A stretch of 64,000 bases of DNA. It comes from Steroidobacteraceae bacterium (lineage in GTDB: Bacteria > Pseudomonadota > Gammaproteobacteria > Steroidobacterales > Steroidobacteraceae). Below the pieces are notes generated by a model. The model ran no database searches. It was not told the origin of the DNA and worked only from the letters and a program-made list of their open reading frames with translations. The translations under genes were made by a program, and so were the position numbers. Shown in pieces: positions 13,026 to 58,400 of this stretch. The number at the start of each line of letters is the position of its first letter. The first letter of the stretch is position 1. The stretch spans positions 45,596 to 109,595 of the forward strand of contig DASXMG010000009.1 of NCBI GenBank assembly GCA_036495805.1, in the 5' to 3' direction.

Positions 13026-15464
13026 CTAAACCTGCGGGCGATCGTCGATGAGCCTCACGGGACCTGCGCTTCGAGTGTGGTGAGAAGATTCCGATCTGCG
13101 GTACAGCCGATTGATTTGCTGAATGAGTTCCTCGCATAAAAAGGGCTTGATCAGGAGCGACAATCCGTATGAGGCGATCGCTTCCCTCGTTTGCGATCTG
13201 GTGTCACCGGTCATCACGATGGCAGGAAGATTCCATGCAAGAGTGGCGCGCAGCCACTTAATGCTCTCAATGCCGTTCATTGGACCCTGGAGGTTGTAAT
13301 CACATAACACTAGCTCAGGAACCAATCCTTTCTGCTGGATCAGGGCGGCCCCGTCGCTAGCCGTCGCAGCTGCAATGACGCAGATGTCTCTCGAGGTCAG
13401 CATCCGATTGAGCGCAGAGCGTACAGACGTTTCGTCTTCGATGACCAGGACTGTGCCGCGGAAAGGCGCGGCGTCAACGTCGGGTATTGGCACTGATTCA
13501 GATGCAACGACATCCGCTCGACCCCGCGGAACCTCAATGGAAAAGGCGGTGCCCTTCCCCGGCGTGGAGCGCACTTCAATCCTATGATCCAATATTTCTC
13601 CCAGTCGCTTGACGATTGCCAGGCCTATTCCGAAGCCGCCGCGCTCAGGGCCGCAATAGTATTCTTCGAATATGTGGGGCAGCTGATCTCCCGCGATGCC
13701 GATGCCGGTATCCCAAACTTCGATCCGAATCCTTTCGCCGGCGCGTCGGCAACCCAACAGGATCTTCCCTCGATCGGTGTAGCGTATTGCATTCGATAGT
13801 AGATTTCGGATCATCTGCTCCAGCATGCGCTTATCGCTATGGACCACGAGATCGGACGGCACCACGCGCCATTGCAAGCGCTTTTCCTCAAGCGGCCAAA
13901 GAAGGTCAATCGCAACGGAATCGAATAGTGCATTGACAGCGAAGTCGCTCATCGATGGACGGAGGTTTCCAGTTTCGAGTCGATTGATATTGAGCAGGCT
14001 GGACAACATGCTGGACATCGTATCGATGGAGTGACCCATGCCGACAATAATGTGGCGGTCCTCTTCATCCCGAAGCTGCGGTTTAAGCGCCCCTAGCAGC
14101 AGTCGCAAAGTTTGCAAGGGTTGCCGCAGATCGTGACTTGCGGCTGCGAGAAAAATCGATTTGGTACGATCCGCCCGTTCCGCCAGTTTCTGTGCACGCG
14201 ATATCTCTTCTTCGAATCGCTTCCGTTGGGTGATATCGGTCGTCAGGCCCTGGACGCGCACCGGCAATCCGTCTGAATCGAATTGAGCGGTAGCCACTTG
14301 TTCCAGCCACAGGTCGTCATCGCCATCCGCTCGTTGGTAGCGGAATGTCACCGAATAAGAGGGCTTGTCGCGGCTGACGCCGCGCACGCCGGCTGTCAGG
14401 TGCGCGCGATCGTGCGGATGAACTTGTCCTAACATCTCACGCGCGCTGAAAACATCTTTCGATCTGAATCCTAGGATTGCTGCCGCGTTCCGGCTGTGAC
14501 GCACTTGGTCAGCACGCAAATCCCAGTCGAAGGCCATCACGCCTCCGGCGCGAAGCGCCTCTTGGAGCCGCGCCTCCCGGTCTAGAAGCGCGATCTGTTG
14601 ACGCTTTCGTTCGCTAAACAGCGCAGTAAGGACCAGCGCGCCGAATACGATTGCCAAAATACTCGCTTGCGCAGACTGGATGCGCTGCTCCAACGAGACG
14701 TGGGAATCGCCAAAAAGGCCGATGGAAAATGTCGTCGTCTCGACGATCGTAATCGAGCAGATAAACGTTGCCGCGCTGGTTATGCCGGGCGGTAGGCGCG
14801 CCGCCATCCAAACGAACCAAGGGCCGAGAGTGATGACCGCGAGCTCGCCGGTCCAATACGTGTGTGGCAAGAACACCAGGAATGTGCACAGCACGCAGAG
14901 CAACGCGAGCGCCAAAGCACTTTCTGCGGCTTCCCGCCTCGACGGAACATTGCGCATCAACGATGCTGAACCGATCACCAGCGGTGCGACTGTGAGCGTG
15001 CCAAGCGAGTCCGAGGCGAACCAGTGAAACCACACGGTTGGCACGGATGCGGTCGCATCATCATGGAACCAGATGAATCCCAGCGTACCGACAATACCCG
15101 AAACGGCCGCTCCCGTGATCGTGGCCGCAAACAGCCCGAGCACGCGTCGCAGCGTGTTGAGTTCAAATGGCGAGCCGTACGATCGCTCGATAAGGCCCGC
15201 GACTAGGACGGCCTCACTGGCGTTGGCAATGGAGAAGACGATCGAACTCCAAACGTTGCGATCGCCCAGCAGATTCGCCAGGAATGTCGCGACCATCACC
15301 CCGAGGATAACCGGCCACCGAGCCGCGGAACCCGCGGCTATTAAGAGGCCGGAGGCTACGCCGGCAGCCGGCCAAAAGACGGCGACACCGTCGGGCTGCC
15401 CGAGGAGGGCTAGACTCAGTCGCGCCGACAGGAAACAAGCAATCGCGACTGCCATTGTGGCCAT
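13026..15464 (-). CDS. hybrid sensor histidine kinase (MASE1 membrane domain-PAS-HisKA-HATPase-receiver)
   Basis: About 290-aa polytopic N-terminus, H-box FLAAASHDLRQPLQT, G-boxes DTGIGI and GGFGIGLAIVKRL, C-terminal receiver VLVIEDETSVR…CDYNL. Confidence 0.9.
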   Translation of the reverse strand: MATMAVAIACFLSARLSLALLGQPDGVAVFWPAAGVASGLLIAAGSAARWPVILGVMVATFLANLLGDRNVWSSIVFSIANASEAVLVAGLIERSYGSPFELNTLRRVLGLFAATITGAAVSGIVGTLGFIWFHDDATASVPTVWFHWFASDSLGTLTVAPLVIGSASLMRNVPSRREAAESALALALLCVLCTFLVFLPHTYWTGELAVITLGPWFVWMAARLPPGITSAATFICSITIVETTTFSIGLFGDSHVSLEQRIQSAQASILAIVFGALVLTALFSERKRQQIALLDREARLQEALRAGGVMAFDWDLRADQVRHSRNAAAILGFRSKDVFSAREMLGQVHPHDRAHLTAGVRGVSRDKPSYSVTFRYQRADGDDDLWLEQVATAQFDSDGLPVRVQGLTTDITQRKRFEEEISRAQKLAERADRTKSIFLAAASHDLRQPLQTLRLLLGALKPQLRDEEDRHIIVGMGHSIDTMSSMLSSLLNINRLETGNLRPSMSDFAVNALFDSVAIDLLWPLEEKRLQWRVVPSDLVVHSDKRMLEQMIRNLLSNAIRYTDRGKILLGCRRAGERIRIEVWDTGIGIAGDQLPHIFEEYYCGPERGGFGIGLAIVKRLGEILDHRIEVRSTPGKGTAFSIEVPRGRADVVASESVPIPDVDAAPFRGTVLVIEDETSVRSALNRMLTSRDICVIAAATASDGAALIQQKGLVPELVLCDYNLQGPMNGIESIKWLRATLAWNLPAIVMTGDTRSQTREAIASYGLSLLIKPFLCEELIQQINRLYRRSESSHHTRSAGPVRLIDDRPQV

Positions 15465-17860: not shown

Positions 17861-17927
17861 CTGCCCTTTTGGGCAGAACTTCGTGCCTGTTCGCCCAGTT
17901 GCTCCGCCCGCGTTTCAGACTGACGAT
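17861..17927 (+). promoter_or_regulatory. conserved box1-box2 / -35 / -10 element, copy A (upstream of the sdaA-like gene, divergent from pta)
   Basis: CTGCCCTTTTGGGCAG-AACTTC-GTGCCTGTTCGCCCAG-TTGCTC-17 nt-GACGAT. Same architecture as copies at 24148, 40140 and 58467(-). Confidence 0.55.
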
Positions 17928-18018
17928 CCAAAGGGCAGACGCGTGTCGCATGCACGTGTGGGGCAGGTTGGAAGAAGCATCCATCCCGCCGTTGGCAGAT
18001 AGACTTCAAGGAGGCCGC

Positions 18019-18183
18019 GTGTCCGAAAACAATGGCAAAGATCGACATGGTCCGCTCGCGGCAAAAGATTTCCACCTCGAGCCGGCGGTTCCCGAGGGTT
18101 CTGACCGGCGCGCGTTCCTGGTGCGAAGCGCACTCGCGACGGCGATTGCGATGTTGACGGGCCGGGCTATTCCGGCAAGCGCG
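18019..18183 (+). other. putative Tat signal peptide coding segment
   Basis: S-D-R-R-A-F-L-V matches S/T-R-R-x-F-L-K. It is followed by the h-region SALATAIAMLTG and an AxA site (ASA|Q). Confidence 0.5.
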
Positions 18184-19626
18184 CAGACACCCGCGGCGGC
18201 GCCCGCGCCGCCGGGAGGTACGAAGCTGTCGCCAGACCTTGCGCTGAACAAAACCTCGAAGGGGCCCGTGATGACGACGGTCGAGGAGATGTACAAGGTG
18301 GGGCCGGGTCCCTCATCGTCGCACACGATCGGGCCGATGCGGATCACTTACGATTTTTACCAGCGATGCGCCAAGCTGCCTGCGGCGCAACTCGATCAAG
18401 CGACCGGACTGAAGGTTCATCTCTACGGGAGCCTGTCGGCGACGGGGAAGGGGCACGGGACGGAACGTGCCGCGCTCGCCGGGATCGTCGGCAAGGAACC
18501 GGCGACAGTCGATCCGGCGTTCCTCGATGAGTTGGCCGCGAAGCCGGATCAGGTGTTTCCAGTCAAGCTCGGCAAAGGTTTCAATGTGTCCTTGAAGGAC
18601 ATCATCTACGACGCCCCGAAGGGCGATTTTCCGCACCCCAACACCATGACCTGTCAGCTGATGGCCGGCGACAAGCCGTTGCTGGAGCTCGAGTATTATT
18701 CGGTCGGCGGCGGCTTCATTGAGTGGAAGGGTTATACGCCGCCCAAGAAAGGCGCGCCTCGCTACCCATACTCGACCATGAAGGAAATGGTCGCGCACAC
18801 CGAGAAGAGCGGACTGTCGTTCGCGAAGGTGGCGATGGCGAACGAGGTCGCGGTATCCGGCAAGAGCGAGGCGGACGTGAATGCGTTCCTCGACAAGATC
18901 GCGACCGCCATGACGAACATCGTGAAGTCAGGGCTCGATGCGCCGCCATCCACGCTGCCTGGGCCGATCAAACTCAAGACCAAGGCCGGCGAAGTCTACA
19001 AGCGGTCCAAGGACGACGCAGGCCAGGCGCAACGGGCAATCGGCCTCGTGTCGGCGTACGCACTCGCGGGTTCCGAGGAGAATGCGCGCGGGCACTTGGT
19101 CGTGACCGCGCCGACCGGAGGCTCGGCGGGAGTGATTCCGGCCGTGCTTTACACAGTGGGCGAAGGTGGCCTCAAGATCCCGCAAGAGAAAATCCGCGAG
19201 GGGCTGCTGGCTGCGGCCGTCGTCGGCTATCTCGGCAAGCACAATGCGACGCTCGCCGGTGCCGAGGGGGGCTGCCAGGCGGAGATCGGCATCGCATCGG
19301 GCATGGGAGCCGCCTTCCTCGGTGCGGCTTTCGATGCGCCGGCGCAGGTGATCGCGAATGCGGCGGAGAGCTCGATCGAACATCATCTTGGCATGACCTG
19401 CGACCCCGTCGCCGGTTTTGTGCAGGTCCCGTGCATCGAGCGCTGCGCTTTCGGCGCCGTCAAGTCGTGGATCGGTTACGAGATCGCCAGCAACGAAATA
19501 CCGGTCAATCGGCGCGTCGACTTCGACACGACGATCAGCGCGCTCGCGTTGACCGCCAAGGAGATGAACTCGAAGTACAAGGAGACCTCCGAAGGCGGTC
19601 TCGCCGTCTCGGTTGTTCTGTGCTGA
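18019..19626 (+). CDS. sdaA: L-serine ammonia-lyase (Fe-S type, single chain) with a predicted N-terminal twin-arginine signal
   Basis: Core …MYKVGPGPSSSHTIGPMRI… through …TSEGGLAVSVVLC. GTG 18019 is preceded by AAGGAGG (18008-18014). The N-terminal 55 aa contain SDRRAFLV, a hydrophobic stretch and ASA-Q. The canonical cytoplasmic start would be ATG 18271. Confidence 0.85.
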   Translation: MSENNGKDRHGPLAAKDFHLEPAVPEGSDRRAFLVRSALATAIAMLTGRAIPASAQTPAAAPAPPGGTKLSPDLALNKTSKGPVMTTVEEMYKVGPGPSSSHTIGPMRITYDFYQRCAKLPAAQLDQATGLKVHLYGSLSATGKGHGTERAALAGIVGKEPATVDPAFLDELAAKPDQVFPVKLGKGFNVSLKDIIYDAPKGDFPHPNTMTCQLMAGDKPLLELEYYSVGGGFIEWKGYTPPKKGAPRYPYSTMKEMVAHTEKSGLSFAKVAMANEVAVSGKSEADVNAFLDKIATAMTNIVKSGLDAPPSTLPGPIKLKTKAGEVYKRSKDDAGQAQRAIGLVSAYALAGSEENARGHLVVTAPTGGSAGVIPAVLYTVGEGGLKIPQEKIREGLLAAAVVGYLGKHNATLAGAEGGCQAEIGIASGMGAAFLGAAFDAPAQVIANAAESSIEHHLGMTCDPVAGFVQVPCIERCAFGAVKSWIGYEIASNEIPVNRRVDFDTTISALALTAKEMNSKYKETSEGGLAVSVVLC

Positions 19627-24147: not shown

Positions 24148-24214
24148 CTGCCCATTCGGGCACACCGTTATGCCCGTTCGCCTAATTGTCCCGCCGGCGT
24201 ACGTTGCAGATGAT
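24148..24214 (+). promoter_or_regulatory. conserved box1-box2 / -35 / -10 element, copy C (upstream of the porin gene)
   Basis: CTGCCCATTCGGGCAC-ACCGTT-ATGCCCGTTCGCCTAA-TTGTCC-17 nt-GATGAT. 78 nt lie between the -10 and ATG 24293. Confidence 0.5.
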
Positions 24215-24292: not shown

Positions 24293-25534
24293 ATGACCAA
24301 CAAGTACCTGGGATGCGTTGCAGTTGGTGCTTTTGGAATTCTTTGCGTCGCGTCGCTGGAAGTCAAAGCCGCCGAGGAAACCCGCTCGTTCGAAATCTAC
24401 GGTTTCGCGCAGGCTGACTGGATTCAAGACTCCAAGCGCATGGATCCCAACTGGGTAGATGCTTTTCGCCCCTCGAAGATCGGAGTCGATAACGAGGAGG
24501 GCGTCAACCCGTACGGCGCGAATGGGGATTCGAGTGTCAGCGTCAAGCAAAGCCGCTTTGGCGCCAAAGGCGTAATGCCGACCGACGAGAGTCATGGGGC
24601 AATTACATTTAAGTTCGAATTCGATGTGTTTGGCACCGGCGTCGACGAGGGGCAGACCACCTTTCGCCTGCGTCACATATTTGGTGAATGGGAGCAGATA
24701 CTCGCCGGACAAACCAACAGCGTATTCATGGACGGCGATGTGTTGCCCAACGGCATCGATTACTGGGGCCCGAACGGCGCCGTTTTCTTGCGTACCCCGC
24801 AGATTCGCTGGACGCCTTACAAAACAGAAACCGCCAGCTTCGTCATTGCGATTGAGCGTCCCGGCAATGACATCGATCCGGGCAACATTCGACTGATCGA
24901 CCAGTATCAAAACGCCACGATCCAGAATCAGGAAAAGGTGCCCGATCTTACCTCGCATTTTCGGCTGGACGGGGGCTGGGGGCATTTTCAAATCGCAACC
25001 ATTTTGCGCCGTGTCGGCTTCGAATATCAGACGGTCGCCGGACAGGGGGCGTGGACCAGCGGATATGAGACGGGCTGGGGCGTTAGTTTGGGCGGCGCCA
25101 TCAAGGCGGTCGGCAAGGATCAAATCCTGCTGCAAGTTACGCACGGCAATGGCATCGCGAGCTTCATGAACGATGGTGGCACCGATCTTGCGCCGAACGC
25201 GAACTTTAATTCGTCGTCGCCCACCTCCCCGACATTGTCGGCCGAAGCAGTGCCCTTGACCGGCGTGCTTGCCTACTATGATCACTACTGGAGCCCGAAG
25301 TTTTCGAGTTCTATCGGCTACAGTTTCGTAGATGTGGACAACACCAGCTTCCAGACTCCGGATGCCTTCCACAAAGCCCAATACGCGTCGGTCAACTTGC
25401 TTTGGACGCCGGTCAGCAGTGTCATGATGGGTGGCGAAGTGCTTTGGGGCGATCGCAAGAACAATGACGGGCTCTCAGGCAACGATGCGCGCTTTCAATT
25501 CACCGTCAAGTACAATTTTGGAATCGCGCTTTGA
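24293..25534 (+). CDS. putative outer-membrane beta-barrel porin
   Basis: Signal peptide …LCVASLEVKA|AEE, alternating amphipathic beta-strand pattern, aromatic-rich C-terminal strands. Family not firmly recognised. Confidence 0.7.
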   Translation: MTNKYLGCVAVGAFGILCVASLEVKAAEETRSFEIYGFAQADWIQDSKRMDPNWVDAFRPSKIGVDNEEGVNPYGANGDSSVSVKQSRFGAKGVMPTDESHGAITFKFEFDVFGTGVDEGQTTFRLRHIFGEWEQILAGQTNSVFMDGDVLPNGIDYWGPNGAVFLRTPQIRWTPYKTETASFVIAIERPGNDIDPGNIRLIDQYQNATIQNQEKVPDLTSHFRLDGGWGHFQIATILRRVGFEYQTVAGQGAWTSGYETGWGVSLGGAIKAVGKDQILLQVTHGNGIASFMNDGGTDLAPNANFNSSSPTSPTLSAEAVPLTGVLAYYDHYWSPKFSSSIGYSFVDVDNTSFQTPDAFHKAQYASVNLLWTPVSSVMMGGEVLWGDRKNNDGLSGNDARFQFTVKYNFGIAL

Positions 25535-26591
25535 AGTTTGACCGCGTATTGAGTGCTAATCCTCCGGCACGCGCGATGCTTGGCGTCGTTCCCGACCACC
25601 TTTTGAACGCATGCGTGAACGCGCTGACCTCCCGATAGCCCAGCAGCCACGCAATCCGAGATATCGACAGATCGGCGTTCGACAAATACTGCCTCGCCAG
25701 ATCGATCCGCAGGTCTTCCAGGACCTTCGAATACGTCACTCCCTCTAGCGCGAGTCGGCGCGCTAGAGTTCGCCGGCTAAGATGGAGTATTGGGGCGATT
25801 TTCGGCGCGAGTACCTTTCCATGCGGCAGCAGGGGGACAATCGCATTCTCGACCGCCGCGCGGCACGCGCCGCTACGTGTCGGCCGATGCGAGAGAGCTT
25901 GCTCGCCATAGGCTACTAAAATTTCGTTGAGGTAGGGATCGGCGCTGGTGATCCTTTCGTGCTTGGTCCGCCCGACGAAAGTAAGTTCATCCGCCTTCGC
26001 CCCAAAAGTTATGTTGCGGCCAAAATACGCGGTCAATGGAGATCCGGCCCTTTTAATGCGCTGATGTGTGATTTGAACACGCCTTGGGGTGACGCGCCGT
26101 TTGGTCAAGTGCCGGCAAACACGGATCAACGCTGTCATGAAGAACTCAATCTGATGACGATCCGGGTGACGGGCGACACCGACATATTCGAACACTATGC
26201 GCAAGTCCCGTCCCTCGAAATATCTGAGCGACAGTCCTTCGTTGACAATCGAGCTGTACCGCGCGGTTCGCTGCAACGCATCGCCCAGCGTTTCAGAGGA
26301 AGCAGCGACGTAATGGAGCAGCCCCAGCTCGCGAAGATCAAATAATTCCGCGAGATGAAAACCGAGAAACACATCCCCTAGGGAAGCCGCAACCAGATTT
26401 AAGAATTCGATCTGTTGCCGCACCGCAAGTCGCGTACGCGAGTCGTTGATCTGCCGTTCGGTCAGTCCAACCTTCTTTAAAAGCGGTTTCACTGCAATGC
26501 CGGACCGTCGCGCGCATGCATAGGCGATTCGGGCGATCCCACCGGTCGCAGTGGGAAGGGCGTGGAGCCGCCGCGTAGCGATATCACTCAT
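25506..26591 (-). CDS. AraC-family transcriptional regulator (AraC-type ligand-binding N-domain + HTH)
   Basis: C-terminal dual HTH (…SISRIAWLLGYREVSAFTHAFKRWSGTTP). Its 3' end overlaps the porin 3' end by 29 nt (convergent). Confidence 0.88.
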   Translation of the reverse strand: MSDIATRRLHALPTATGGIARIAYACARRSGIAVKPLLKKVGLTERQINDSRTRLAVRQQIEFLNLVAASLGDVFLGFHLAELFDLRELGLLHYVAASSETLGDALQRTARYSSIVNEGLSLRYFEGRDLRIVFEYVGVARHPDRHQIEFFMTALIRVCRHLTKRRVTPRRVQITHQRIKRAGSPLTAYFGRNITFGAKADELTFVGRTKHERITSADPYLNEILVAYGEQALSHRPTRSGACRAAVENAIVPLLPHGKVLAPKIAPILHLSRRTLARRLALEGVTYSKVLEDLRIDLARQYLSNADLSISRIAWLLGYREVSAFTHAFKRWSGTTPSIARAGGLALNTRSNFKARFQNCT

Positions 26592-26633
26592 GATCTTCGT
26601 GCCGAATTGTCATTGGCCTAAGGCGACAAAAGC

Positions 26634-27083
26634 TTGGCCCAAGAACGCAAGACCATGACGCAAATTCACGCATATAAAGGGCGCCCACTGGCCAAGCGGA
26701 TTGGTATGCCAACGAAGCGCAAAGTCATCGCGGTAATCGACGATAGCCTCGGCATCCTCAGCGCCTTGGGGCGTTTGTTGTCAACACTTGGGTACGACAC
26801 GGAACTCTATGCCTCAAATTGGGAGTTCCTTGATGCTCGGATGATCACCGCAGCAAGTTGCCTCATACTCGACGTACACCTTGGTGAGAGTTCGGGTCTG
26901 GATCTGGCGGAGCAACTCGCGAACACCGGCTGCAAAATCCCGTTCATTTTCATGAGTTCGGATCCTGGTGAATCAGTTAAAGAGAGAGCTGGGAAAATCG
27001 GCGCCCTTGCTTTTTTGATCAAGCCATTTGGCGTAGATGAACTGGTCAAGGCGCTGGCTCTGGTACCCCCTCGTCGCCCTTAA
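26634..27083 (+). CDS. single-domain response regulator (CheY-like receiver)
   Basis: KVIAVIDDSLGIL…CLILDVHLGESSG…FMSS…LIKPF. The start is uncertain (26634, 26655 or 26706). Confidence 0.8.
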   Translation: MAQERKTMTQIHAYKGRPLAKRIGMPTKRKVIAVIDDSLGILSALGRLLSTLGYDTELYASNWEFLDARMITAASCLILDVHLGESSGLDLAEQLANTGCKIPFIFMSSDPGESVKERAGKIGALAFLIKPFGVDELVKALALVPPRRP

Positions 27084-31778: not shown

Positions 31779-32351
31779 TTACTGCATTTGGTCAAGCATG
31801 TTGGAGAAAGAGGTTTTGAGCCGTAGTGCCTTCTTGATCTCCTCGGCGCTCACGAACGGATATTCCCCATATTCCAGGAAGCTCGGACATTGGTGTTCGC
31901 GCACGAATTTGGCGAAGGCCGGCGAATTGGTCTGCCAGTCCGCGGGGAATCCTTCGAGATTTTCAAAAACCGTGCGGATACCAAGTGCCGAAAAAAGTGC
32001 CACGGCGTCCTCGGTATATTTGTCGAAGTCCGTGTCGAAGATGCCCTGATACATGAAGTAGATCTCGCCCTTGATTGGGAAGAGAACCCAGCGCAGATAA
32101 TGCAGTTTGAGCACTGCGAGACAGTCCGGCTGGCCGGCGACCGCCTTCTCGAGGTTGCGCGCATACTCGTAAAAGACCGGCTCCCTGCCGGCAATGATCT
32201 TTGCGATAATCGTGAAGCCGTACGAGGCGGGCGTCTTTGGGAAGATCGGCCCGAAACGGCCCTGTTCGACTTTGTCGGCGAAGAAGCCGCCCTTTGGGAT
32301 CGCCATCGCGGCGGGTTTGGACCACTCGGGCTGTTTGGAAATGTCGGACAT
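31779..32351 (-). CDS. hypothetical protein, first gene of the DyP cluster
   Basis: 190-aa ORF 18 nt upstream of the DyP gene, normal composition, no recognised motif. Confidence 0.6.
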   Translation of the reverse strand: MSDISKQPEWSKPAAMAIPKGGFFADKVEQGRFGPIFPKTPASYGFTIIAKIIAGREPVFYEYARNLEKAVAGQPDCLAVLKLHYLRWVLFPIKGEIYFMYQGIFDTDFDKYTEDAVALFSALGIRTVFENLEGFPADWQTNSPAFAKFVREHQCPSFLEYGEYPFVSAEEIKKALRLKTSFSNMLDQMQ

Positions 32352-32468
32352 GGTGTGTGCTCTAGTGACTTTGGCGGGGCGGAAGACTAGCGGACAGCCG
32401 CAATTCGCAACCTACGGTATGCAGACCTGAGCGGCAATTGTCCTTTGGTGCAGAACTGAGTGGGTTCT

Positions 32469-35400
32469 TCAAGGTCCGCGACTCACGCCATCGATTGCCG
32501 GGCGGTTCTCGGCGTCATTGGTGGCGAACTGAGGCCGCACGACAGACTTATCGGTCGACTCTTCGATCAACGCACGGAGTTTCGGCGCGAGCGCTCGTAG
32601 CAGCGAGACGGCTAGGGAGCTGGTGAAGTGGTAGTTCGCCGCCTGTGCTCCGGGTACAAATGCGGTGACCGTGCCGTACAGGCGATCGCCAACAAAAAAC
32701 ACGAATGTCGCGGTCCGGTCGACCAAGCGCGATTCGATGAGTTGGTGCCCGGGCCCGAACGACTCGAATCGGTTATCGCCAGTTCCCGTCTTGCCGCCGA
32801 TCCGAAGCGGTCTCCCGTCTGCTCCGAAGAAAACGCCGCGCGCCCTCGCCGCGGTTCCCGCATCGACGACACCGACGAGGACACGGCGCAGCGTGGCGGC
32901 GACCTCCGCGGACATCACTCGTGTTGATGGCGCAGGCTTGTAGATCATTTCTGTTTCGTACGGTGTGCCGGCAGCGAAACGCACGTGTTGAAGATCGGTG
33001 GTGGGCAGCTTTACGCCGTCATTGAGGATGATTCCCATCAGCGTGGCGAGCGCATCGGGTCGGTCGCCGGAACTGCCTATCGCCGTGGCCAGAGATGGAA
33101 CCAGGCGGCCGAATGGATAGCCTTGCTGTTTCCAGTCCAGCAAAAGGCGGTCGAATGCATCCTGCTCGATCAACTCCCGGATTCGTACGTTTTGCTGGTG
33201 GGTTTTTGCGTTTTTAAACAGCCAGGCATACGCCTGCTGTCGTTGGTCGGCGCTGGCAGCGATGACCTGCGAGCGCGTGACGTGCGGGTGCTGGTACAGG
33301 TGCGCCGCCAGCCAGAGTTCGAGCGGGTGGACGCCGGCAAGGTATCCGCGGTCATTCAGCGAGAATCTTTTCGGGGCGAATTTGGCGTACAGATCCTTGG
33401 CGGCGCTTGCAGATACTTCTTCGTTGGCATAACGCGCGATGAAGTCCTGCATCTGCGCCATTGTTTCATCGGGCCGTACAGTACGAAAAACCACCGCGAG
33501 CCGGCGCGGCGTCGGTTGGCCGCTGCCGGCGAGCTGCTCAAGCGCCTCGTCTGGCGATAGATTCGCGTAGCTGAGATAGAAATGATTGAGGAAAACAGTG
33601 CCTTCCTGATCGGCGAAGCGGCGCAACAGTTCCTGGCGTACGGAACCATCGGAACCGTGCACGCCCTCGTGCGCGCCCAAGTTGGCTTCGTAGTGCTGTA
33701 TCACTTCCCGTAACAGGCGCACGAAGGCAAGATTGATCGAGCGCTCGAAGGCTTGTTCGACGGTCGGGATCTCAGTGTCTTCCCCGGGCTCGAAATTATG
33801 AAAGACGTGTACGCCGCCGCCGGTGAAGAATTCCTGGAGCGGACTGGCGGAATAGCGGCGCTGCATCGCGCCATTCAGCATTGTCTGCAACGTACGGTGT
33901 CCGGGCTGCGTGCTTGAAAGGTAGTCCGCCGCCCATCTCCTCAGCGGGTCATCGCTGGTCTCGGCCAGCTTGCGCAGCGCCGGCGCCGGCAAATTAGAGA
34001 GTTCGCGATACTGGCTGTCGATGATGCCAAGATAGGTCGAAAGTGTCCTCAGCTTGGCGGTAGATCCCAGTATCAGCTTCGCTCCTGAATTCAAGTCAAA
34101 GGGCTGCTCCATACTGTCGGCGTGAACGCGGATAAGATTGCGGTCCTTGACGCGCTCATAGAGAACAACGCTCCACACGACGTTGCCTGGATCGGCCTCG
34201 TCCAGGAGTTGATAGCCCGTCAATCCCAGCGCACCGACCTCCGTGGGATCCTTCAGCTGCTCGAGGAGCGTCGCCACCTGGCTTTGTGTCGCTCCATCGA
34301 TGCTGATATCGGCCGAAAGATCCAACCGGTCGAGGATATTGACCTGCGGCAGACCAAGCGCCCGCATAAGCTCCTTGCGCACGGCATCGATGGCTTTGCG
34401 CTCCACGAATGAGCGCGCACTCGGCGGCGGCGGTGCCGGTGTGAAATTGAGCCGGCGCACCAGTGCCGCGTCGCGCAGTGCAGGATCGATCACGCCTGCC
34501 GAAGCCAGGGCGCGCAGATAGCTGTCGGTGAGGAGTTCGAGATCCGCGCGGCCGGCGTTCAAATAGTAGGTGGGCCTACGTTGAGCGATCAGCAGCCCCA
34601 ACACCTCCTTGTAGATCTGCGCACGGCGCTCCATTTGAGCGTCAGAGGCAGGCGGAAGCGAAAGCAGCTTGTTCGCCTCAGTCAGATCGACACCAAACCA
34701 TGCGGACATTGCATCGCCCAAGCCGACAACCTCTCCATAGGCCGGCCTTGAGCCCAAAGGCGTCGAATCAAGATAGGCCGTGACGATCTCCCGTTGCGCA
34801 GCCATCGTCTCAAAATCATCCAGATAAGCGCGGGCTGTCGCTGTCACGATTTGCCGCATTTTCTCGGTAGCGCTCCCAGTACGCCCATCGGGCGAGTGCC
34901 GATATTTCTCGATCTGCGTCGCCAACGTACTGGCTCCTCCGAGCCTGAGGCGGGGATTGACCATTCCGCCCAGCTGCCCGGCGGCTGCCCGGGCGAAGCG
35001 CCGCCAAACGACTGCGGGATTGCGGTAAGGGTCTTTCGGATTCAAAAGCTCACGATCTTCAATAAACCGCAGCGTGTCGACGAGCAGTTTGGGTATCTCC
35101 TCGAAGCGGCGATAAATCGCCGACGGATAAGACGTGGCCTCGAGCGTGCGGCCCGAACTATCCGTCAGCATCAGTCCCGCCTGCGCCTTTTCGTGGTACA
35201 CAGCATAGCCGCCGGCCTCGATGAAGCGCACCAACGCAGCCGACTGAACCGCCTGGCTGACGATCTCGAAGTTGCGGGATTTCAGGCGACCAATCAGCGC
35301 GGGCATATTGGCGTAACCCAGGCGTTGATCGTATGGTCCGCCGCGAGGAAATCGCACAGCCGGGCTTGCCCCCGGTTTCATCTCGAATCTCAAGTCGGCA

Positions 35401-36547: not shown

Positions 36548-38050
36548 TCATATTGATGGCGGCAGCAATATTGCCGTGCGTTCAAGATAGCGGGCAGAAG
36601 TGCGGTTACGGGGGTCGCCAATGTTGACGTAAAACGTCGCGGCCTGTTTTCGGGATCTGTTCGGAATAATCCTGATGAATAGGCTGGCTAAGCCCTTTCC
36701 CTTCGGCAGAAGCCGAGTTATCCGGGCCTGTGGTACGTAATCTATGCCGGGTTTTGCCGATGAAGGCTCGGTCCACCACACGAACGCCGCATCGCCGGCA
36801 TATCCCAAGGAGCGGCGGACGTGGATTTCGGCGAAATGTTCCTGCGACGGAATCCTGTATGTGTCGGCGGCCATGCTCAGCTTATGAGGCTTGACTTTGT
36901 TGAGTAATGGGTAGCGGGTGGTGGCGCTTTGGAGCGCTGCCGCATGGGTCGCTGCCGCAGCCGGGTTCTCGTTATTGATCAGCGGAATCTCCGCCGTCTT
37001 GGGGAGGTCGAATGAGCCGCTGATTTTTCTGTCGAACGAAGCGCGATTGATCGAAACGCACACCGCTAGAGCAAGGCAGAGAACGGCAGACATTGCGATG
37101 GCGCTTGACGAACGCGGCCTCAACAGGGCTGTGGGCGCCGTGTAGCGGGCAGAGAGGGGCGCTATTCGCCGTTCGCTCGCTTGTCCTGGAATCAGCCTGG
37201 CAATCCACTCGCGTATCGAAATCGAGCGGTCTTCCCGGCTCCCGGAAAGACCCATTGCCAATGTTTGCCACTGTCGCCGAGTGAGTCCACTTGGCCGTCG
37301 CGCCATCGAGCGGAGATCCTGCGCTTCGGTCGATGTGCGGCGTTGAAACGGATGCCGGCCCGAAAGCAACTCGTACGATATGCAGGACAAGGCATAGAGA
37401 TCGTCGCGCGGATCGGCTTGGGAGGCGCCAAAACCGAGTATGCGCAATTCACCCGAATGGGTAATTATGATATTTCGCGGTTTCAGGTCACCGTGCACGA
37501 TGTTACGCGAATGCGCGTGCGCCAAAACTTCCCCTACCTCTCGTATTATTGCCCAAGCAGATGCCCTGGGTATTGAAATGGCCGGCAATCTCTCAAACGC
37601 GCTGCTCAAAGTTTCACCCTTCAGAAACTCCATCGTGAAGAAGGCAATATCATTGTCCCGATCCCACTCGTACACTTTGACCGTGCTGCGATGCGAGAGC
37701 GTTAGCGCGCAAAGGAACTCGCGCCGTAGTTTCGATGAAATCTCTGCGCGCTTGTCAGTGGTTTCATGGGGCTCACGCTGCAATTTTATTGCGATGTGGC
37801 GATTGTCCTCGGGGTGATTGCTGCGATATAGATCCATTGCTTTGAACACTGTTCCGGCAACGCCCTTGCCCATGCGACTTTCTAAAAAATAGCGATTTCG
37901 CAATATTCGGCCAACCTCAGGGAGTGGTGCGGTTCGCTCATTCATGTGCGCCGGCGCAGCTTTGAACTGAGCCGATTGAGCGCCATCCGATAGATGACGG
38001 CCACACATAGGGCAATTCATGAGAAATCTGTGGATTGTCATTCGGCCCAA
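36548..38050 (-). CDS. Ser/Thr protein kinase-like membrane protein (degenerate kinase core) with N-terminal zinc ribbon
   Basis: CPMCGRHL. G-loop GKGVAGTVF, AIK Lys (HIAIKLQ), catalytic loop HGDLKPRNI, but GFG in place of DFG and a very short activation segment. TM segment AIAMSAVLCLALAVCV. C-terminal Calx-beta-like region. Confidence 0.8.
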   Translation of the reverse strand: MGRMTIHRFLMNCPMCGRHLSDGAQSAQFKAAPAHMNERTAPLPEVGRILRNRYFLESRMGKGVAGTVFKAMDLYRSNHPEDNRHIAIKLQREPHETTDKRAEISSKLRREFLCALTLSHRSTVKVYEWDRDNDIAFFTMEFLKGETLSSAFERLPAISIPRASAWAIIREVGEVLAHAHSRNIVHGDLKPRNIIITHSGELRILGFGASQADPRDDLYALSCISYELLSGRHPFQRRTSTEAQDLRSMARRPSGLTRRQWQTLAMGLSGSREDRSISIREWIARLIPGQASERRIAPLSARYTAPTALLRPRSSSAIAMSAVLCLALAVCVSINRASFDRKISGSFDLPKTAEIPLINNENPAAAATHAAALQSATTRYPLLNKVKPHKLSMAADTYRIPSQEHFAEIHVRRSLGYAGDAAFVWWTEPSSAKPGIDYVPQARITRLLPKGKGLASLFIRIIPNRSRKQAATFYVNIGDPRNRTSARYLERTAILLPPSI

Positions 38051-38285
38051 ATCATCCCGTTTGGCAGATATTGTTTTTCTTTCGAGTCACTACGTTGACG
38101 TTATCGATGTATCGCATGCGCCGCTCCATCGCAATTGGACTAAAGGGCAACATGCCCTGCCTGCAAGGGCAGCCGCCGGGGAGGATGACTGCACCTAGGT
38201 ACAGGCGGATATTGCGCTTCGTTTTGATAACCTTCGGTCGCGGTCCGCAGCGCCGTCCTAGCCTTCACAAGCGGGTTGGAATGCC

Positions 38286-39303: not shown

Positions 39304-39981
39304 TCAGGGGGTGATGGCTTTCGCTTTGTCAAGTTCGCCACGCAGAGTCTTCGCCCAACCCGAGGCCGCGTTTCGTGCCTCGACAGCATTGTAGAACGTG
39401 TTCGAAAATCGGAAATTGCCCGGCGAGTGTGCCTGGTAGCGGTCGAGCATACGCACCATGATTTCCCCGGTCTCAGAATCCGCCAGCTCGGCGAGCAAGG
39501 TCATCTCACCGGCGGATACGGTATATACGCGCACTCGTCCGGCCGTGGGTACATCCGGTGCGGTAACGTAGAGATTGATGATCGAAGCCTGTACGCGCAA
39601 CACCTCCGGGCCTGGCTCGGAGACGATGGAGTAGCCGCCCTTCTTCAATTCCTCCACGAAGGCGTCGTGGATACATTCGGCGACATCGTCGCGGATTTTT
39701 TGCAATTCGCCGGAAGACAAGCCGCGCCTGCTGCCCGGGACGGTCGGCTTGAAACTTTTGTGAAAGCGTACGCCGATCGGCTGGATCATCACCGTTTTGT
39801 AGCCGGCAAGTGTTGCGCCCGGCAGCGCATAGGCCACGTCGACGTTTTTGATGTCGATCTTCCGCAGACCGTCATAGCTCATTACCTCGTCCAGGGTCTT
39901 TGCCTGCTGGGCGAGTACCGAGGTAGTCAAGAACAGACTGATGAGCCCAGCCAGTTGCCGAAGCAACCGTTTGTGATTCAT
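39304..39981 (-). CDS. secreted protein, DUF3313-like
   Basis: MNHKRLLRQLAGLISLFLTTSVLAQQ signal peptide from ATG 39981. The longer ORF to 40047 is an upstream extension. Confidence 0.6.
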   Translation of the reverse strand: MNHKRLLRQLAGLISLFLTTSVLAQQAKTLDEVMSYDGLRKIDIKNVDVAYALPGATLAGYKTVMIQPIGVRFHKSFKPTVPGSRRGLSSGELQKIRDDVAECIHDAFVEELKKGGYSIVSEPGPEVLRVQASIINLYVTAPDVPTAGRVRVYTVSAGEMTLLAELADSETGEIMVRMLDRYQAHSPGNFRFSNTFYNAVEARNAASGWAKTLRGELDKAKAITP

Positions 39982-40139
39982 GAGCACCTCAAGCCCTCCT
40001 ATAGTTTGACGTGCCGTCTCGGGCTGTCTCCTGCCGCATCCTGCCAACCTTAGGAACGCGAGACACTTGGATCAAAAGGCATAACGGACTGCCCGAATGG
40101 GAGGAAGTCGAGTAACGTAGCCGGCGCTGACCGCGGCAG

Positions 40140-40206
40140 CTACCCCTTTGGGCAGAAGTCATGCCTTTTCGTCGGATTGTCTCCGCCCGCAACTCGGGCG
40201 AAGGAT
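40140..40206 (+). promoter_or_regulatory. conserved box1-box2 / -35 / -10 element, copy E (upstream of the GH13-led operon)
   Basis: CTACCCCTTTGGGCAG-AAGTC-ATGCCTTTTCGTCGGA-TTGTCT-18 nt-AAGGAT. There is an extra box1-like CTGCCCGAATGG at 40089. Confidence 0.5.
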
Positions 40207-40270
40207 GTGATTGGCCACCGACGCTCGAAAAGGACAAGCAACTCCGCAGGCGGAAAGCCGAGCAATTATC

Positions 40271-41776
40271 ATGTCCACGTGGGTGAAATATCCTACATTG
40301 TACGAAATCAATACTTGGGTCTGGCTTTCCGATCTCAGCCTGAAAGCGGGAAAGCCCGTTGACTTGAGTTGCGTGCCCGCGGCGGAGTGGGATTGTATCG
40401 CCAGCCTCGGATTTCATGCCGCCTGGTTGATGGGCGTATGGGAGCGAAGCCCGGCCGGAATGACGATTGCCAATCGGAATGAGAATCTAGTCGAATCCTT
40501 CAGGCATGTCCTCGCGGATTTCACACCGCAGGACAATGTTGGATCTCCGTATTGCATTCATCGCTACGTCGTCGACCGGCAACTCGGCGGTGCGAGAGCG
40601 CTTGCAATTGCCCGCGAACAACTTGCAAACCGTGGCGTGAAGCTGCTCCTGGATTTCGTGCCGAACCATGTGGCGCCGGATCATCCGTGGGTCGGCGAAC
40701 ACCCGGATTATTTCATTCGCGGGAATGTCGAGGATCTAAGAAGCGATCCTGCGTCCTATCTCGAAGTCCAAGACCGCATTTACGCATGCGGACGCGATCC
40801 ATTTTTCCCGGCTTGGCCGGATGTTTTGCAGCTCAATGCGTTTGAACCGGGGCTGCGGCAGGCCGCGCTTGCCACCATTTCCAGCATCGCCGCACAGTGC
40901 GATGGTATTCGTTGCGACATGGCGATGCTTCTGCTGAACAAAATCTTTGCCCGGACTTGGGGCCGCCGCGCCGGAGTTCAACCGTCGACGGAGTATTGGA
41001 GCGATTTGATCTCGGCCACCAAGAAAGCAAACCCGCACTTCCTTTTCATTGCTGAAGCTTATTGGGATCAAGAGTGGGAACTTCAGCAGTTGGGCTTTGG
41101 CTACTGCTATGACAAGCGGCTGTACGACCGTTTGGAACACGACAATGCGGAGAGCGTCCGCCTTCATCTGTGCGCCGATATAGGCTACCAAAGAAAACTG
41201 CTTCGCTTTCTTGAGAATCACGATGAGCCGCGCGCTGCGGCAGTCTTCTCAGCTGCTAAGGAACGGGCTGCCGCGCTCATCACAGCGTCAGTCCCGGGCG
41301 CTAGATGCTTTCATGAAGGTCAATTGGAAGGCAGAAAAATCCGCTTGCCCGTATTTCTGGGTAGGCGCCCAGCGGAGCCCGTGGACAAAGACTTACAGTC
41401 GTTCTACATGAAATTATTGGCGGCGATCGATGCCCCGATTTTTCGCGATGGCGATTGGCAGTTATGCGAACGAAGCGGCTGGCCAGACAATTCAAGCGTT
41501 CGAAATCTCGTGGCATGGAGCTGGGTGAAGTGCACCGATCGGCGCCTCATCGTGGTCAACTTTTGCGGCGCTGCCGTGCAAGCTCATGTGCAGGTACCGT
41601 GGGAGAACCAAAGTGACTCTACTTGGCGTTTTACTGACAAGCTTTCGGATACCAGCTTCGAGCGCCATTTGCGCGAGCTTGCCGCACCAGGGTTGTATGT
41701 GGAGTTGGGTCCTTGGGGCTTCCATTTGTTCGAGTGCGAGATTACGCGCAATCACGCCGAAACTGCGCACCGGTAG
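40271..41776 (+). CDS. alpha-amylase family (GH13-like) glycoside hydrolase
   Basis: All four GH13 regions are present: LLLDFVPNHV, GIRCDMAML, FIAEAYWD, FLENHDEPR. ATG 40271 is preferred because TTG 40211 would sit at the predicted transcription start. Confidence 0.85.
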   Translation: MSTWVKYPTLYEINTWVWLSDLSLKAGKPVDLSCVPAAEWDCIASLGFHAAWLMGVWERSPAGMTIANRNENLVESFRHVLADFTPQDNVGSPYCIHRYVVDRQLGGARALAIAREQLANRGVKLLLDFVPNHVAPDHPWVGEHPDYFIRGNVEDLRSDPASYLEVQDRIYACGRDPFFPAWPDVLQLNAFEPGLRQAALATISSIAAQCDGIRCDMAMLLLNKIFARTWGRRAGVQPSTEYWSDLISATKKANPHFLFIAEAYWDQEWELQQLGFGYCYDKRLYDRLEHDNAESVRLHLCADIGYQRKLLRFLENHDEPRAAAVFSAAKERAAALITASVPGARCFHEGQLEGRKIRLPVFLGRRPAEPVDKDLQSFYMKLLAAIDAPIFRDGDWQLCERSGWPDNSSVRNLVAWSWVKCTDRRLIVVNFCGAAVQAHVQVPWENQSDSTWRFTDKLSDTSFERHLRELAAPGLYVELGPWGFHLFECEITRNHAETAHR

Positions 41777-41893
41777 TCGAAATAGACATGCTGGTCGCGC
41801 TGCACTTTAGTGCAATGTTTGAAGCGCTTTGGTGCAATTGTTGTAGTGCGTTCTTGATGTGATCCTGTCTTGGTCCATTGCGAGGAGCGCCCT

Positions 41894-43858
41894 ATGACCA
41901 ACCAAATCGGCCGGATTGATCAGTCAATCGTTGCGCTGTTAACGGACGTCGATGGGACGTTGGTTACAAAAGACAAAGTGATCACGGCGCGAGCATCTCA
42001 GGCAGTGAAGAGATTGCGAGAGCTTGGACTGGTATTTACCATCACGAGTGGCCGACCACCGCGCGGAATGCGCATGCTGGTGGCGCCGCTCCAGTTGACG
42101 TTGCCCATGGCCGCTTTCAGCGGCGCAGTGATCGTGCTCCCGGATCTGTCCGTAGTCGATCAAAGGACCCTTCCCGACTACGTGCTTCCTTCCCTCGTGG
42201 AAATGATCGCGTCGTTTGGCCTCGATGTATGGTTATATAGTGCCTCTGATTGGTACGTTCGCTCCCGCGAGGCTCTGCGAGTGGACCGCGAGTCATCAAC
42301 GGTGCAGTTCGAACCCACGGTGGTCCGCGACTTCGACCACGTGCTCACCGAGATCGTGAAAATAGTCGGCGTCAGTAACGATCACGCGCGCGTCGCGGCC
42401 TGCGAGGCGGCCCTTCAGGAAGAGTTCGGGACCCAGGTGACCGCTGCGCGATCGCAGCCGCATTATCTCGACGTGACCCATCCCAGCGCCAACAAGGGGA
42501 CGGTAATCGAGCGGCTGTCGCGTTATCTGAAGATTCCGTTGCAGCAAATCGCCACGATCGGCGATCAGTTGAACGACGTGCCGATGTTCAAACGCAGCGG
42601 ACTTAGCATCGCGATGGGCAACGCAAGCGACGAAGTCAAGCGCCAGGCAATGTTCGTAACGAGTTCGTTTGGCGATGAGGGCTTCGCCAATGCCGTTGAA
42701 AATTACATCCTGCCTCGGGCCAAGGCCGCGTGTGGTCCGGCAATCAAGGCCACCGGTCAGCTCAACCGGCTCGGGCAAAGCCTTTGGCTTGACAACATAA
42801 CGCGCGATTTGCTGACGAGCGGCACGCTCGAGAGCTATGTTGACGATCTGTCGATCACCGGGCTCACTTCGAATCCGACGATCTTCGAGCAAGCGATCAA
42901 GAACAGCTCTGCTTACGACGCGGCGATCGGCAAGAAGATCAGGCAGGAAAAAACGGCAGAGGAACTGTTTTTCGAACTCGCTATCGACGATCTCACGCAA
43001 GCGGCAGAAAGTTTTCGTCCGATATTCGATCGGACCAATGGCGTGGATGGATGGGTGTCGCTCGAGGTCTCGCCGCTCCTAGCCTACGACACCGCCGGGA
43101 CGCTGGCGGCCGCCAAGGAGCTCTTCGCTCGGGCAGCGTGCCGCAACCTCTTGATCAAAATCCCAGGCACCCGGGAAGGCCTGCCGGCCATCGAGGAAGC
43201 CATCTTCGCGGGAATTCCTGTGAACGTGACCCTGCTTTTCTCGCGCGAGCAGTATTTGGCGGCCGCCGAAGCGTTCTTGCGCGGCATCGAGCGCCGCATC
43301 GATGCCGGACTGAAGCCTGATGTAGGTTCTGTGGCGTCGGTTTTCGTAAGCCGCTGGGACGCGGCAGTGAGGGACAAGGTCCCCGAGTCACTGCGCAACA
43401 AGCTCGGCCTCGCGGTGTCGCAACGCACTTACAAGGCGTATCGAGCACTGCTCAGCTCGCCGCGTTGGCAGCGCAGCTACAATCTGGGCGCCCGGCCGCA
43501 GCGCCTGTTATGGGCAAGTACCGGCACCAAGGATCCATTGGCTTCCGACGTTTTGTACATCAAGGCGCTGGCGGCCCCCTTCACGGTAAACACGATGCCC
43601 GAAAACGCACTCAAGGCGCTCGCCGACCACGGTGATATTCCGGCGCTCATGCGTGCAGACGGCGGAAACTGCGAGGAGGTTTTGAAGCGGTTTGCGGTGG
43701 AGGGGATCGATATCCACGCGCTGGCGCGCAAGTTGCAGAGCGATGCCGCGCAGTCGTTCGTCAAGTCTTGGAATGAACTGATGCGGGTAATTGCTTCGCG
43801 CAGCGCAACGCTCGGAAAAACTCATTACGCAATGCGCGGCCACGCCGGCGCCCATTGA
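41894..43858 (+). CDS. tal: fusion protein: Cof-type HAD phosphatase (N) + transaldolase (C)
   Basis: HAD motifs LLTDVDGTL, TSGR and GDQLND in the first ~280 aa. Transaldolase follows from …GQSLWLDNITRD, …ITGLTSNPTIF and the Schiff-base Lys region NLLIKIPGT. GAGGAG RBS before ATG 41894. No stop codon or internal start at the junction. Confidence 0.85.
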   Translation: MTNQIGRIDQSIVALLTDVDGTLVTKDKVITARASQAVKRLRELGLVFTITSGRPPRGMRMLVAPLQLTLPMAAFSGAVIVLPDLSVVDQRTLPDYVLPSLVEMIASFGLDVWLYSASDWYVRSREALRVDRESSTVQFEPTVVRDFDHVLTEIVKIVGVSNDHARVAACEAALQEEFGTQVTAARSQPHYLDVTHPSANKGTVIERLSRYLKIPLQQIATIGDQLNDVPMFKRSGLSIAMGNASDEVKRQAMFVTSSFGDEGFANAVENYILPRAKAACGPAIKATGQLNRLGQSLWLDNITRDLLTSGTLESYVDDLSITGLTSNPTIFEQAIKNSSAYDAAIGKKIRQEKTAEELFFELAIDDLTQAAESFRPIFDRTNGVDGWVSLEVSPLLAYDTAGTLAAAKELFARAACRNLLIKIPGTREGLPAIEEAIFAGIPVNVTLLFSREQYLAAAEAFLRGIERRIDAGLKPDVGSVASVFVSRWDAAVRDKVPESLRNKLGLAVSQRTYKAYRALLSSPRWQRSYNLGARPQRLLWASTGTKDPLASDVLYIKALAAPFTVNTMPENALKALADHGDIPALMRADGGNCEEVLKRFAVEGIDIHALARKLQSDAAQSFVKSWNELMRVIASRSATLGKTHYAMRGHAGAH

Positions 43859-55748: not shown

Positions 55749-55825
55749 CTTCAGTTTGAAAAGAGGGTAGGGCGATTCGGCAAAAAGCCGCAAAGTCTTG
55801 GGCGCGCCGCTGCTGGGTGTTGTTG

Positions 55826-58300: not shown

Positions 58301-58400
58301 CCACGGTGATTTGCGTCTGAGGGTCTGCTTGGAATGACCCCACCATTGGCAACGCTCATGCCTCGATCCCGAAGATCAACGCGGTGCGTGCTTGGCTTGC

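Follow-up and report, generated by a model that had tools for sequence, protein, structure and literature searches.

A 64,000-nucleotide (nt) stretch of a Steroidobacteraceae genome (contig DASXMG010000009.1), here called the window and the reference for all window coordinates, raises the question of what controls the fermentation genes that it carries. An earlier note described four copies of a ~67-nt layout upstream of such genes, consisting of an inverted repeat (box 1), a second box (box 2), and a -35-like and a -10-like hexamer, and left the architecture unrecognised. Here, we report that this module is a genuine, selectively maintained operator-promoter cassette. We observe directly a repeated and conserved piece of DNA with fixed orientation and geometry, its conservation at orthologous genes in relatives, and its genomic linkage to a regulator gene. 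On this basis we consider it probable that the module is the tandem operator-promoter of a response regulator of the FixJ/StyR family, acting at an activator-dependent promoter of the sigma-70 type.

A module repeated in the window

Reading and aligning the sites confirmed the repeated layout on the strands and at the coordinates first given for it: copy A at 17861 to 17927 (+), copy C at 24148 to 24214 (+), copy E at 40140 to 40206 (+), and copy B at 58401 to 58467 (-). In copy A, box 1 (17861 to 17876) reads CTGCCC TTTT GGGCAG, box 2 occupies 17883 to 17898, the -35-like TTGCTC lies at 17899 to 17904, and a 17-nt spacer leads to the -10-like GACGAT at 17922 to 17927; it precedes sdaA (18019 to 19626), an MFS gene, pflB, and pflA, with pta-ackA divergent on the opposite side. 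Copy B (box 1 at 58467 to 58452, box 2 at 58445 to 58430, TTGTCC, a 17-nt spacer, and AAGGAT at 58406 to 58401) precedes the phosphoketolase gene xfp (55826 to 58300), a receiver-only gene, and an NTP-transferase gene. Copy C (box 1 at 24148 to 24163, box 2 at 24170 to 24185, TTGTCC, a 17-nt spacer, and GATGAT) faces a DcaP-like porin gene (24293 to 25534). Copy E (box 1 at 40140 to 40155, only 5 nt between the boxes, box 2 at 40161 to 40176, TTGTCT, an 18-nt spacer, and AAGGAT) heads an operon of a GH13-like gene (40271 to 41776), a HAD/transaldolase fusion, and genes for a ROK kinase, PGI, DUF2090, transketolase, MscS, and GH63. The earlier description also holds for the identical 19-mer in copies A and B, for TTGYYY beginning 16 nt past the first base of box 2, for the 17- to 18-nt spacer, and for the NANGAT hexamer. 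The 6-4-6 inverted repeat ascribed to box 1 is perfect in copies A and B, but the right arm reads GGGCAC in copy C and the left arm CTACCC in copy E.

The number of copies had been set too low. Relaxed searches and an nhmmer model recovered two further full copies and one decayed copy. Copy G (40038 to 40104, -; 52.9 bits) stands back-to-back with copy E and consists of box 1 CCTCCC ATTC GGGCAG (40104 to 40089), box 2 (40082 to 40067), GTGTCT, a 17-nt spacer, and CAGGAT (40043 to 40038); it precedes a DUF3313 lipoprotein gene (39304 to 39981). Copy F (38106 to 38172, -; 36.8 bits), the weakest among the full copies, has box 1 CTGCCC TTGC AGGCAG (38172 to 38157), box 2 TTGCCCTTTAGTCCAA (38150 to 38135), and TTGCGA, and it precedes a Ser/Thr protein kinase gene (36548 to 38050). 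The decayed copy (55736 to 55816, -; 21.9 bits, E=4.8e-5) has lost box 1 and carries a mutated box 2, and its -10-like GAAGATGCA and leader still align with sdaA-type copies. Its location is the 100-nt interval that separates the xfp stop codon from the downstream receiver-only gene (~55374 to 55724, -), and it looks like a relic of that gene's own promoter, which is intact in the related loci L018, L041, L045, and L047 (loci outside the window are designated by L numbers throughout); a full module copy belongs to the L018 orthologue of this receiver-only gene (61% identity). As had been claimed for the first four, all copies in the window lie on the coding strand of the downstream gene, and all are intergenic and oriented toward the next start codon.

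Several counts set the module apart from chance. Box 2 (RTGCCYKTTCGYC) has exactly 4 occurrences in the window at 0 or 1 mismatch, and a combined pattern of boxes 1 and 2 matches three times, compared with 0.00 matches expected from 100 shuffles. When the window was scanned with a position weight matrix (PWM) of box 1 alone, the six full copies ranked top at 17.7 to 25.7 bits, and the remaining new sites scored 13.6 bits or less, bar a 16.3-bit reverse-strand reading of copy B's own palindrome; shuffled windows gave a best score of ~14 bits on average and 18.1 at maximum.

Anatomy of the cassette

The anatomy is derived from ~27 distinct instances in the window and its relatives, 24 of which could be aligned across both boxes. 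Their consensus, yTCTGCCCyTTCGGGCAGAACnTTGTGCCTGTTCGyCCArTTGTCy-N17/18-nAssATGCA, describes a cassette of ~70 bp that resolves into CTGCCC-yTTC-GGGCAG, N6, rTGCCyGTTCGyCCAr, TTGTCy, N17-18, and nAssAT-GCA. Box 1 is a 16-bp dyad with half-site centres 10 bp apart; its inner TGCCC-N4-GGGCA (5-4-5) is at least 85% conserved, with four positions invariant and seven at 90% or more across 27 instances, and the outermost C/G pair is not conserved. Box 2 repeats TGCCynTTCG in the register of box 1, 22 bp downstream, and its degenerate right half abuts the TTG. The centre-to-centre spacing of the boxes is 22 bp in nearly all instances and 21 bp in copy E and in the instance 234aa_L046. The 5 to 6 nt between the boxes, previously taken for non-conserved, are semi-conserved (AACnTT), and the central yTTC of both boxes lies on the gene-proximal strand in 27 of 27 instances. 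Three tandem boxes, with 22- and 21-bp spacing, occur in L046 (16031 to 16100) and L043 (13236); there, the boxes precede a gene for a 200- to 234-amino-acid (aa) protein without assigned function.

Box 2 abuts the TTGTCy-N17-18-nAssAT pair, in which A2, A5, and T6 of the -10-like hexamer are kept in nearly all instances. If transcription is assumed to start ~7 nt past this hexamer, the predicted centres of boxes 1 and 2 fall at ~-65.5 and ~-43.5. The four intergenic regions hold no pair of hexamers that agrees with the sigma-70 consensus at 9 or more of 12 positions, so the proposed promoter would be weak and without an obvious rival.

The -10-like hexamer had been thought to close the element; conservation in fact continues beyond it. 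Directly past the hexamer, alignment reveals a third conserved block with the family consensus rGGCGArcGCr..CCGC, found in the window at 17931 to 17950 (+), where it reads AAAGGGCAGACGCGTGTCGC, and at 58400 to 58380 (-). The block is also present in the L008, L017, L018, L039, and L046 copies, is common to non-orthologous copies, and occurs in a variant form, cAGGCGAACGCAATCCGAGACGGCA; its resemblance to the right arm of box 1 together with the spacer (GGGCAGAAC) is partial. In the copy before the L018 receiver-only gene, it is displaced by a 24-nt insertion. No structure was predicted for the third block or the leaders, which fold no better than shuffles.

Conservation in relatives

A strict-pattern scan of 185,579 representative genomes gave real matches solely in two Microflora Danica metagenome-assembled genomes (MAGs) labelled "uncultured Gammaproteobacteria," with four strict-pattern sites on one 2.58-Mb contig. 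The majority of matches in two pattern scans of public collections were chance occurrences on GC-rich actinobacterial and other contigs and were discarded after inspection of their flanks. The two MAGs share 82 to 89% DNA identity with the window and keep the module upstream of the sdaA, porin, and xfp orthologues, as an element tied to these genes should; they also have two further copies elsewhere. Orthologous copies were found in L008 for copy A (before the sdaA orthologue), in L007 for copy C, and in L017, L008, and L046 for copy B, and a metagenome scan added the module-bearing soil contigs L021/L033/L035, L027, and L034.

The boundary of the conserved region is sharp. In an alignment of the regions upstream of xfp from four genomes, there is no conservation before box 1 and then an abrupt onset, from which conservation extends through box 2, the -35-like and -10-like hexamers, and the further block. 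The pair of sequences upstream of sdaA has the same abrupt pattern.

A linked response regulator

The module is linked in relatives to a gene for a response regulator with receiver and GerE domains (REC+GerE). This gene ends ~40 nt before the module in L027, and a distance of ~40 nt also separates it from a downstream module copy in L018, L039 (twice), L045, L047, and L048. The start of the module ~40 nt past the regulator stop codon is seen regardless of whether the next gene encodes a receiver-only protein, an outer-membrane protein, or a 190-aa protein. A pair of histidine kinase and response regulator genes adjoins a module-driven receiver-only gene in L018, L041, L045, L047, L048, and L050. 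In L018, whose regulator is an orthologue 89% identical to that of L027, the kinase-regulator operon and the module-driven receiver-only gene diverge, with a second module beyond the regulator gene.

The linkage extends to more distant relatives. At a regulator identity of 81% (L039 to L041), a cluster of regulator, receiver-only, and regulator genes is divergent from the GH13-HAD/transaldolase-PGI operon, with five module copies. At 71 to 76% (L042 to L044 and L046), one kinase and two regulator genes lie between the HAD/transaldolase operon, xfp, a DyP operon, and pfl, with several copies. At 63 to 69% (L045, L047, L048, and L050), the order kinase, regulator, module, receiver-only gene is found in otherwise unrelated neighbourhoods, and the linkage persists there with no fermentation genes nearby. 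Box 1 is perfect in L045 and L047 and has diverged to weak, correctly placed matches in L048 and L050. Both MAGs with the strict motif also encode the regulator. The most constant target of the module in relatives is the receiver-only orthologue beside the kinase-regulator pair, which suggests FixT-like feedback on the kinase. In L047, the whole module is duplicated (6660 and 10230), identical over more than 100 nt, with a truncated receiver fragment after the first copy; this suggests a recent segmental duplication or an insertion between the regulator and its receiver-only gene.

The regulator has the Pfam domains Response_reg and GerE, and among solved structures it is closest to StyR (1yio; full-length match, E=5e-46), followed by FixJ of B. 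japonicum (5xso). Its best NCBIfam model is FixJ, at 184.9 bits under a cut-off of 255, with TtrR next. For the kinase core, the best NCBIfam model is FixL, at 170 bits against a cut-off of 850 and over the transmitter core only; the 370-aa N-terminal region of the kinase matches nothing in Pfam or the PDB and lacks a PAS or haem domain. We rejected an assignment to the FixLJ oxygen-sensing system proper, given scores below the FixJ and FixL equivalog cut-offs, the missing haem-PAS domain, and a different operator. The recognition helix RTVKVYRAQMM is common to the FixJ-type paralogues and differs from TVKVHRHNIM in StyR and RTIEVYRANVM in FixJ, a difference that would be consistent with a distinct operator.

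Proposed mechanism and known counterparts

From sequence comparison, we infer binding, cooperativity, activation, transcription starts, feedback, and a physiological signal, as follows. Box 1, ~65 bp upstream of the predicted start, would be the high-affinity site for a dimer of the phosphorylated REC+GerE regulator. A second dimer would occupy the degenerate box 2, probably cooperatively and on the same helix face (22 bp being two turns), next to the weak -35 element, and would recruit RNA polymerase to a promoter whose -10 hexamer (nAssAT) may be too poor to fire alone. The regulator and a membrane histidine kinase would be encoded outside the window, as they are in relatives inside or beside the same gene island, and the module-driven receiver-only protein may feed back on the kinase in the manner of FixT. 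The regulon would amount to a switch to fermentative, low-energy metabolism; a low-oxygen or low-energy signal is suggested by two things, the gene content and a cytochrome bd operon near L045.

Three characterised systems share this layout. Phosphorylated StyR activates from an inverted-repeat site at ~-40, with further lower-affinity sites bound cooperatively (PMC2442086). The StyS/StyR system at PstyA of Pseudomonas fluorescens ST is the one with the nearest solved homologue of the regulator, and it likewise has multiple sites; the proximal site of our module touches the -35 element. The operator CTGCCC-N4-GGGCAG is, however, unrelated in sequence to the STY box, which is reportedly AT-rich (ATAAACCATGGTTTAT). 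Furthermore, the better dyad of the module is the distal one, its two sites adjoin each other (22 bp) where PstyA has an intervening IHF site, the recognition helix has KVYRAQ where StyR has KVHRHN, and the module serves a multi-operon regulon, whereas StyR serves one catabolic operon.

TodS/TodT at PtodX of Pseudomonas putida belongs to the same regulator subfamily and also uses a two-box operator. The TodT boxes are centred at -107, -85, and -57, which puts 22 bp between the first two, as in the module. A preprint describes the TodT operator as a pair of pseudopalindromes with an additional half-site (bioRxiv 10.1101/2025.05.12.653411, citing Lacal et al.). The TodT boxes lie far upstream and depend on IHF-mediated bending, whereas the sites of the module reach the -35 element; the box sequence and the type of kinase also differ.

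At PfixK, FixJ protects -69/-44 and -57/-31, and its site is given as 16 bp or as an 18-bp imperfect palindrome (PMC4999443). For FixL/FixJ of rhizobia and Caulobacter, the protected interval coincides with the predicted positions of boxes 1 and 2, and the module-driven receiver-only genes recall FixT, a FixLJ-induced single-domain receiver that inhibits FixL (PMC7078487). By inspection, the published FixJ sites TAAGTAATTTCCCTTA, GTAGTTTCCC, and GTAMGTAG (PMC4999443) do not resemble CTGCCCyTTCGGGCAG. FixJ regulons are also tiny cascades via FixK, whereas the many operons preceded by the module appear to be direct targets.

Box 1 also fits the 16-bp CT-N12-AG dyads of las-rhl boxes (PMC2018727). 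LuxR-type regulators belong to the same GerE/LuxR_C helix-turn-helix superfamily as the linked regulators. Lux boxes have a class-II-like placement near -42, but a tandem second site is atypical of them, and the linked regulators have a phospho-receiver in place of an autoinducer-binding domain. We rejected a LuxR-type quorum-sensing box, the linked regulators being REC+GerE proteins and no Autoind_bind domain being present in any locus.

Taken as a layout, a 16-bp dyad followed by a degenerate second site that reaches the -35 element is that of StyR, TodT, and FixJ promoters, so the architecture is less foreign than first supposed. The operator itself still matches no described one; in the library of papers searched, none contains the operator string and nothing relevant was found. 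The module thus appears to work like a promoter of the StyR/TodT/FixJ type with a new operator sequence, and it calls for no new promoter concept.

Alternative explanations

Several observations weigh against assigning the module to the FixJ/StyR-type regulator. The fixed orientation of yTTC is not explained by a purely symmetric dimer and fits a direct-repeat reading. A tblastn search of the window for a GerE-type regulator found receiver domains only, which places the regulator gene outside the window. A paralogue, P0009 (L037/L038), is 83% identical and has no module within 10 kb; its recognition helix has KVHRAQ instead of KVYRAQ. Several FixJ-type paralogues and a NarL-type regulator co-occur in the island, and the sites could be common to them or divided among them. 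Since the linked loci are in part orthologous, independent observations of linkage number fewer than loci, and the operator is unlike any published StyR, TodT, or FixJ site.

The direct-repeat reading leads to the AraC/XylS type of activator favoured in the earlier note, with the local AraC-family protein (25506 to 26591, -; QhpR-like, below the NCBIfam cut-off) binding boxes 1 and 2 as direct repeats. TGCCynTTCG is present in both boxes 21 to 22 bp apart, with the proximal one abutting the -35 element and the central yTTC in one orientation, as in AraC/XylS operators, and the island contains or adjoins an AraC gene in the window, L007, L039/40, and L046. However, box 1 is truly dyadic: its half-sites are identical and 10 bp apart, which one would not expect for an AraC monomer, whose two helix-turn-helix units are unlike. 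The gene is absent from the fetched flanks of module-bearing L018, L045, L047, L048, and L050, loci with FixJ/StyR-type orthologues that keep the module, and nhmmer at E<=1 detected no module in the three AraC-orthologue loci L051 to L053 (70 to 75% identity). The L039 AraC gene, with a module copy before it, looks like a target itself. We therefore regard AraC-type activation as quite unlikely, and the protein is more probably a neighbour or target than the binder. It is unlikely, too, that some other dimeric regulator encoded elsewhere, whether of the CRP/FNR or LysR type or the island's NarL-type protein, binds the boxes and that the FixJ-like linkage reflects coincidental co-regulation. 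A 5-4-5 dyad is the geometry of an FNR box, and a LysR recognition site at -65 with an activation site at -43 would be compatible with the module; a HisKA_3 kinase and NarL-like regulator pair stands beside the FixJ-type regulator in L041, L042, and L046, and the close paralogue P0009 without a module nearby points the same way. Yet no CRP/FNR or LysR gene was called in ~15 fetched loci, although the earlier note had offered such factors as its alternative, and the dyad, evenly centred and of the form T-N12-A, lacks the LysR T-N11-A signature. L018, L045, L047, L048, and L050 keep the module but have no NarL-type pair.

Two further readings fare much worse. That the GGGCAs-N7-TGC stretch is a sigma-54 -24/-12 promoter, with the remainder incidental, is highly improbable: GGGCAG...GTGCC is superficially like TGGCAC-N5-TTGC, but the GG-to-GC spacing is 11 nt, one too long against 10, in 22 of 24 instances (the shorter N5 occurs only in copy E and 234aa_L046). 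No gene for a sigma-54 activator (AAA+ bacterial enhancer-binding protein) is present in any fetched locus, and conservation runs on to TTGTCy-N17-18-nAssAT, superfluous for a sigma-54 promoter. An RNA element (leader, riboswitch, or terminator of the upstream gene) or a repeat of the repetitive extragenic palindrome or miniature inverted-repeat transposable element type is equally hard to credit. Box 1 could form a 6-bp GC-rich hairpin, and several copies begin ~40 nt past the stop codon of the regulator gene. Across 27 sequences, however, the box 1 arms show 0 compensatory changes, 0 of 6 pairs doubly changed, and 18 pair-breaking cells; every arm change breaks a pair or yields a G-U wobble, and covariation is no better than in shuffles, 473 of 500 of which reach the observed score. 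The check for RNA structure that the earlier note had called for thus gave it no support. A terminator scan of the intergenic regions found none at module hairpins (both of its two calls, in 39950 to 40300, lie outside modules), no T-run follows the box 1 hairpin, and Rfam at the gathering threshold yielded only a tRNA in the window. Because covariation, an Rfam match, and a T-run are all missing and no structure is predicted for the leaders, box 1 is best read as a sequence-constrained protein site rather than RNA. As for repeats, the low copy number, as on the 2.58-Mb contig, and the gene orientation of every copy are unlike those of such elements, which the earlier note had expected to occur at high copy number regardless of orientation.

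Regulon content and significance

The module stands before at least six operons. The putative targets in the window are genes for serine dehydratase and pyruvate formate-lyase, phosphoketolase, the glucan/pentose-phosphate operon, a porin, a lipoprotein, and a Ser/Thr kinase; the set also takes in receiver-only proteins and, in relatives, the DyP operon and glutaminase. The fermentative carbon regulon envisaged at the outset is borne out in that the set is rich in fermentative and sugar-catabolic genes, but it is too narrow a description, given the porins, lipoprotein, kinase, receiver-only, DyP, and glutaminase genes. The operon for a 190-aa protein, DyP, a 338-aa protein, and a MetA-like protein has only a chance-level box in the window (32351 to 32469) and a full module in L039; regulon membership thus differs among relatives.

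These results provide a concrete cis-element, available as an nhmmer or PWM model, and a candidate regulator for the fermentation genes of an uncultured and apparently common soil gammaproteobacterial lineage, covering phosphoketolase, the acetate kinase neighbourhood, pyruvate formate-lyase, and the glucan/pentose-phosphate operon. The regulon could be enumerated in silico from complete MAGs, and the signal could be approached via the 370-aa sensor region of the kinase. The module would also add a TGCCC-N4-GGGCA specificity to the StyR/TodT/FixJ branch, whose DNA recognition code is poorly mapped. The finding would be useful for the physiology of this lineage and is not conceptually surprising. 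A broader picture is possible, although we hold it to be rather doubtful as a whole: a large, lineage-specific, directly controlled regulon across a widespread group of uncultured soil Gammaproteobacteria, with expanded FixJ/StyR-like regulators, an envelope or periplasmic signal, FixT-like damping, fermentation by the bifid shunt and pyruvate formate-lyase, and remodelled porins, in effect a DosR-like low-oxygen or low-energy programme with a new operator and a third element at the transcript starts.

Other regulatory genes in the window are, besides the AraC-family gene and the Ser/Thr kinase gene, two receiver-only genes (26634 to 27083 and that downstream of xfp) and a hybrid histidine kinase gene of the NahK/ErcS family with MASE1 and PAS domains (13026 to 15464, -), which adjoins ackA-pta. 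The hybrid kinase and the two receiver-only genes suggest a multi-kinase phosphorelay around the regulon. The AraC gene and the first receiver-only gene form a conserved divergent pair (window 25506 to 27083; L051 6011 to 7642; L052 7470 to 9137), which in L051 and L052 encloses a conserved intergenic sequence of its own that bears no relation to the module.

The HAD/transaldolase open reading frame (41870 to 43858, +) fuses a HAD phosphatase (Hydrolase_3/S6PP-like) to a transaldolase and is also found as a 644-aa gene in L039, L042, and L046. Its operon mates encode the GH13-like protein, a GH63/mannosylglycerate-hydrolase-like protein, and the MscS channel, a combination that hints at turnover of a compatible solute or glucan feeding the phosphoketolase pathway. 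Finally, Logan contig P0121 (2436 nt) encodes a protein 100% identical to the AraC protein of the window, and the organism of the window is thus present in at least one public sequencing run.

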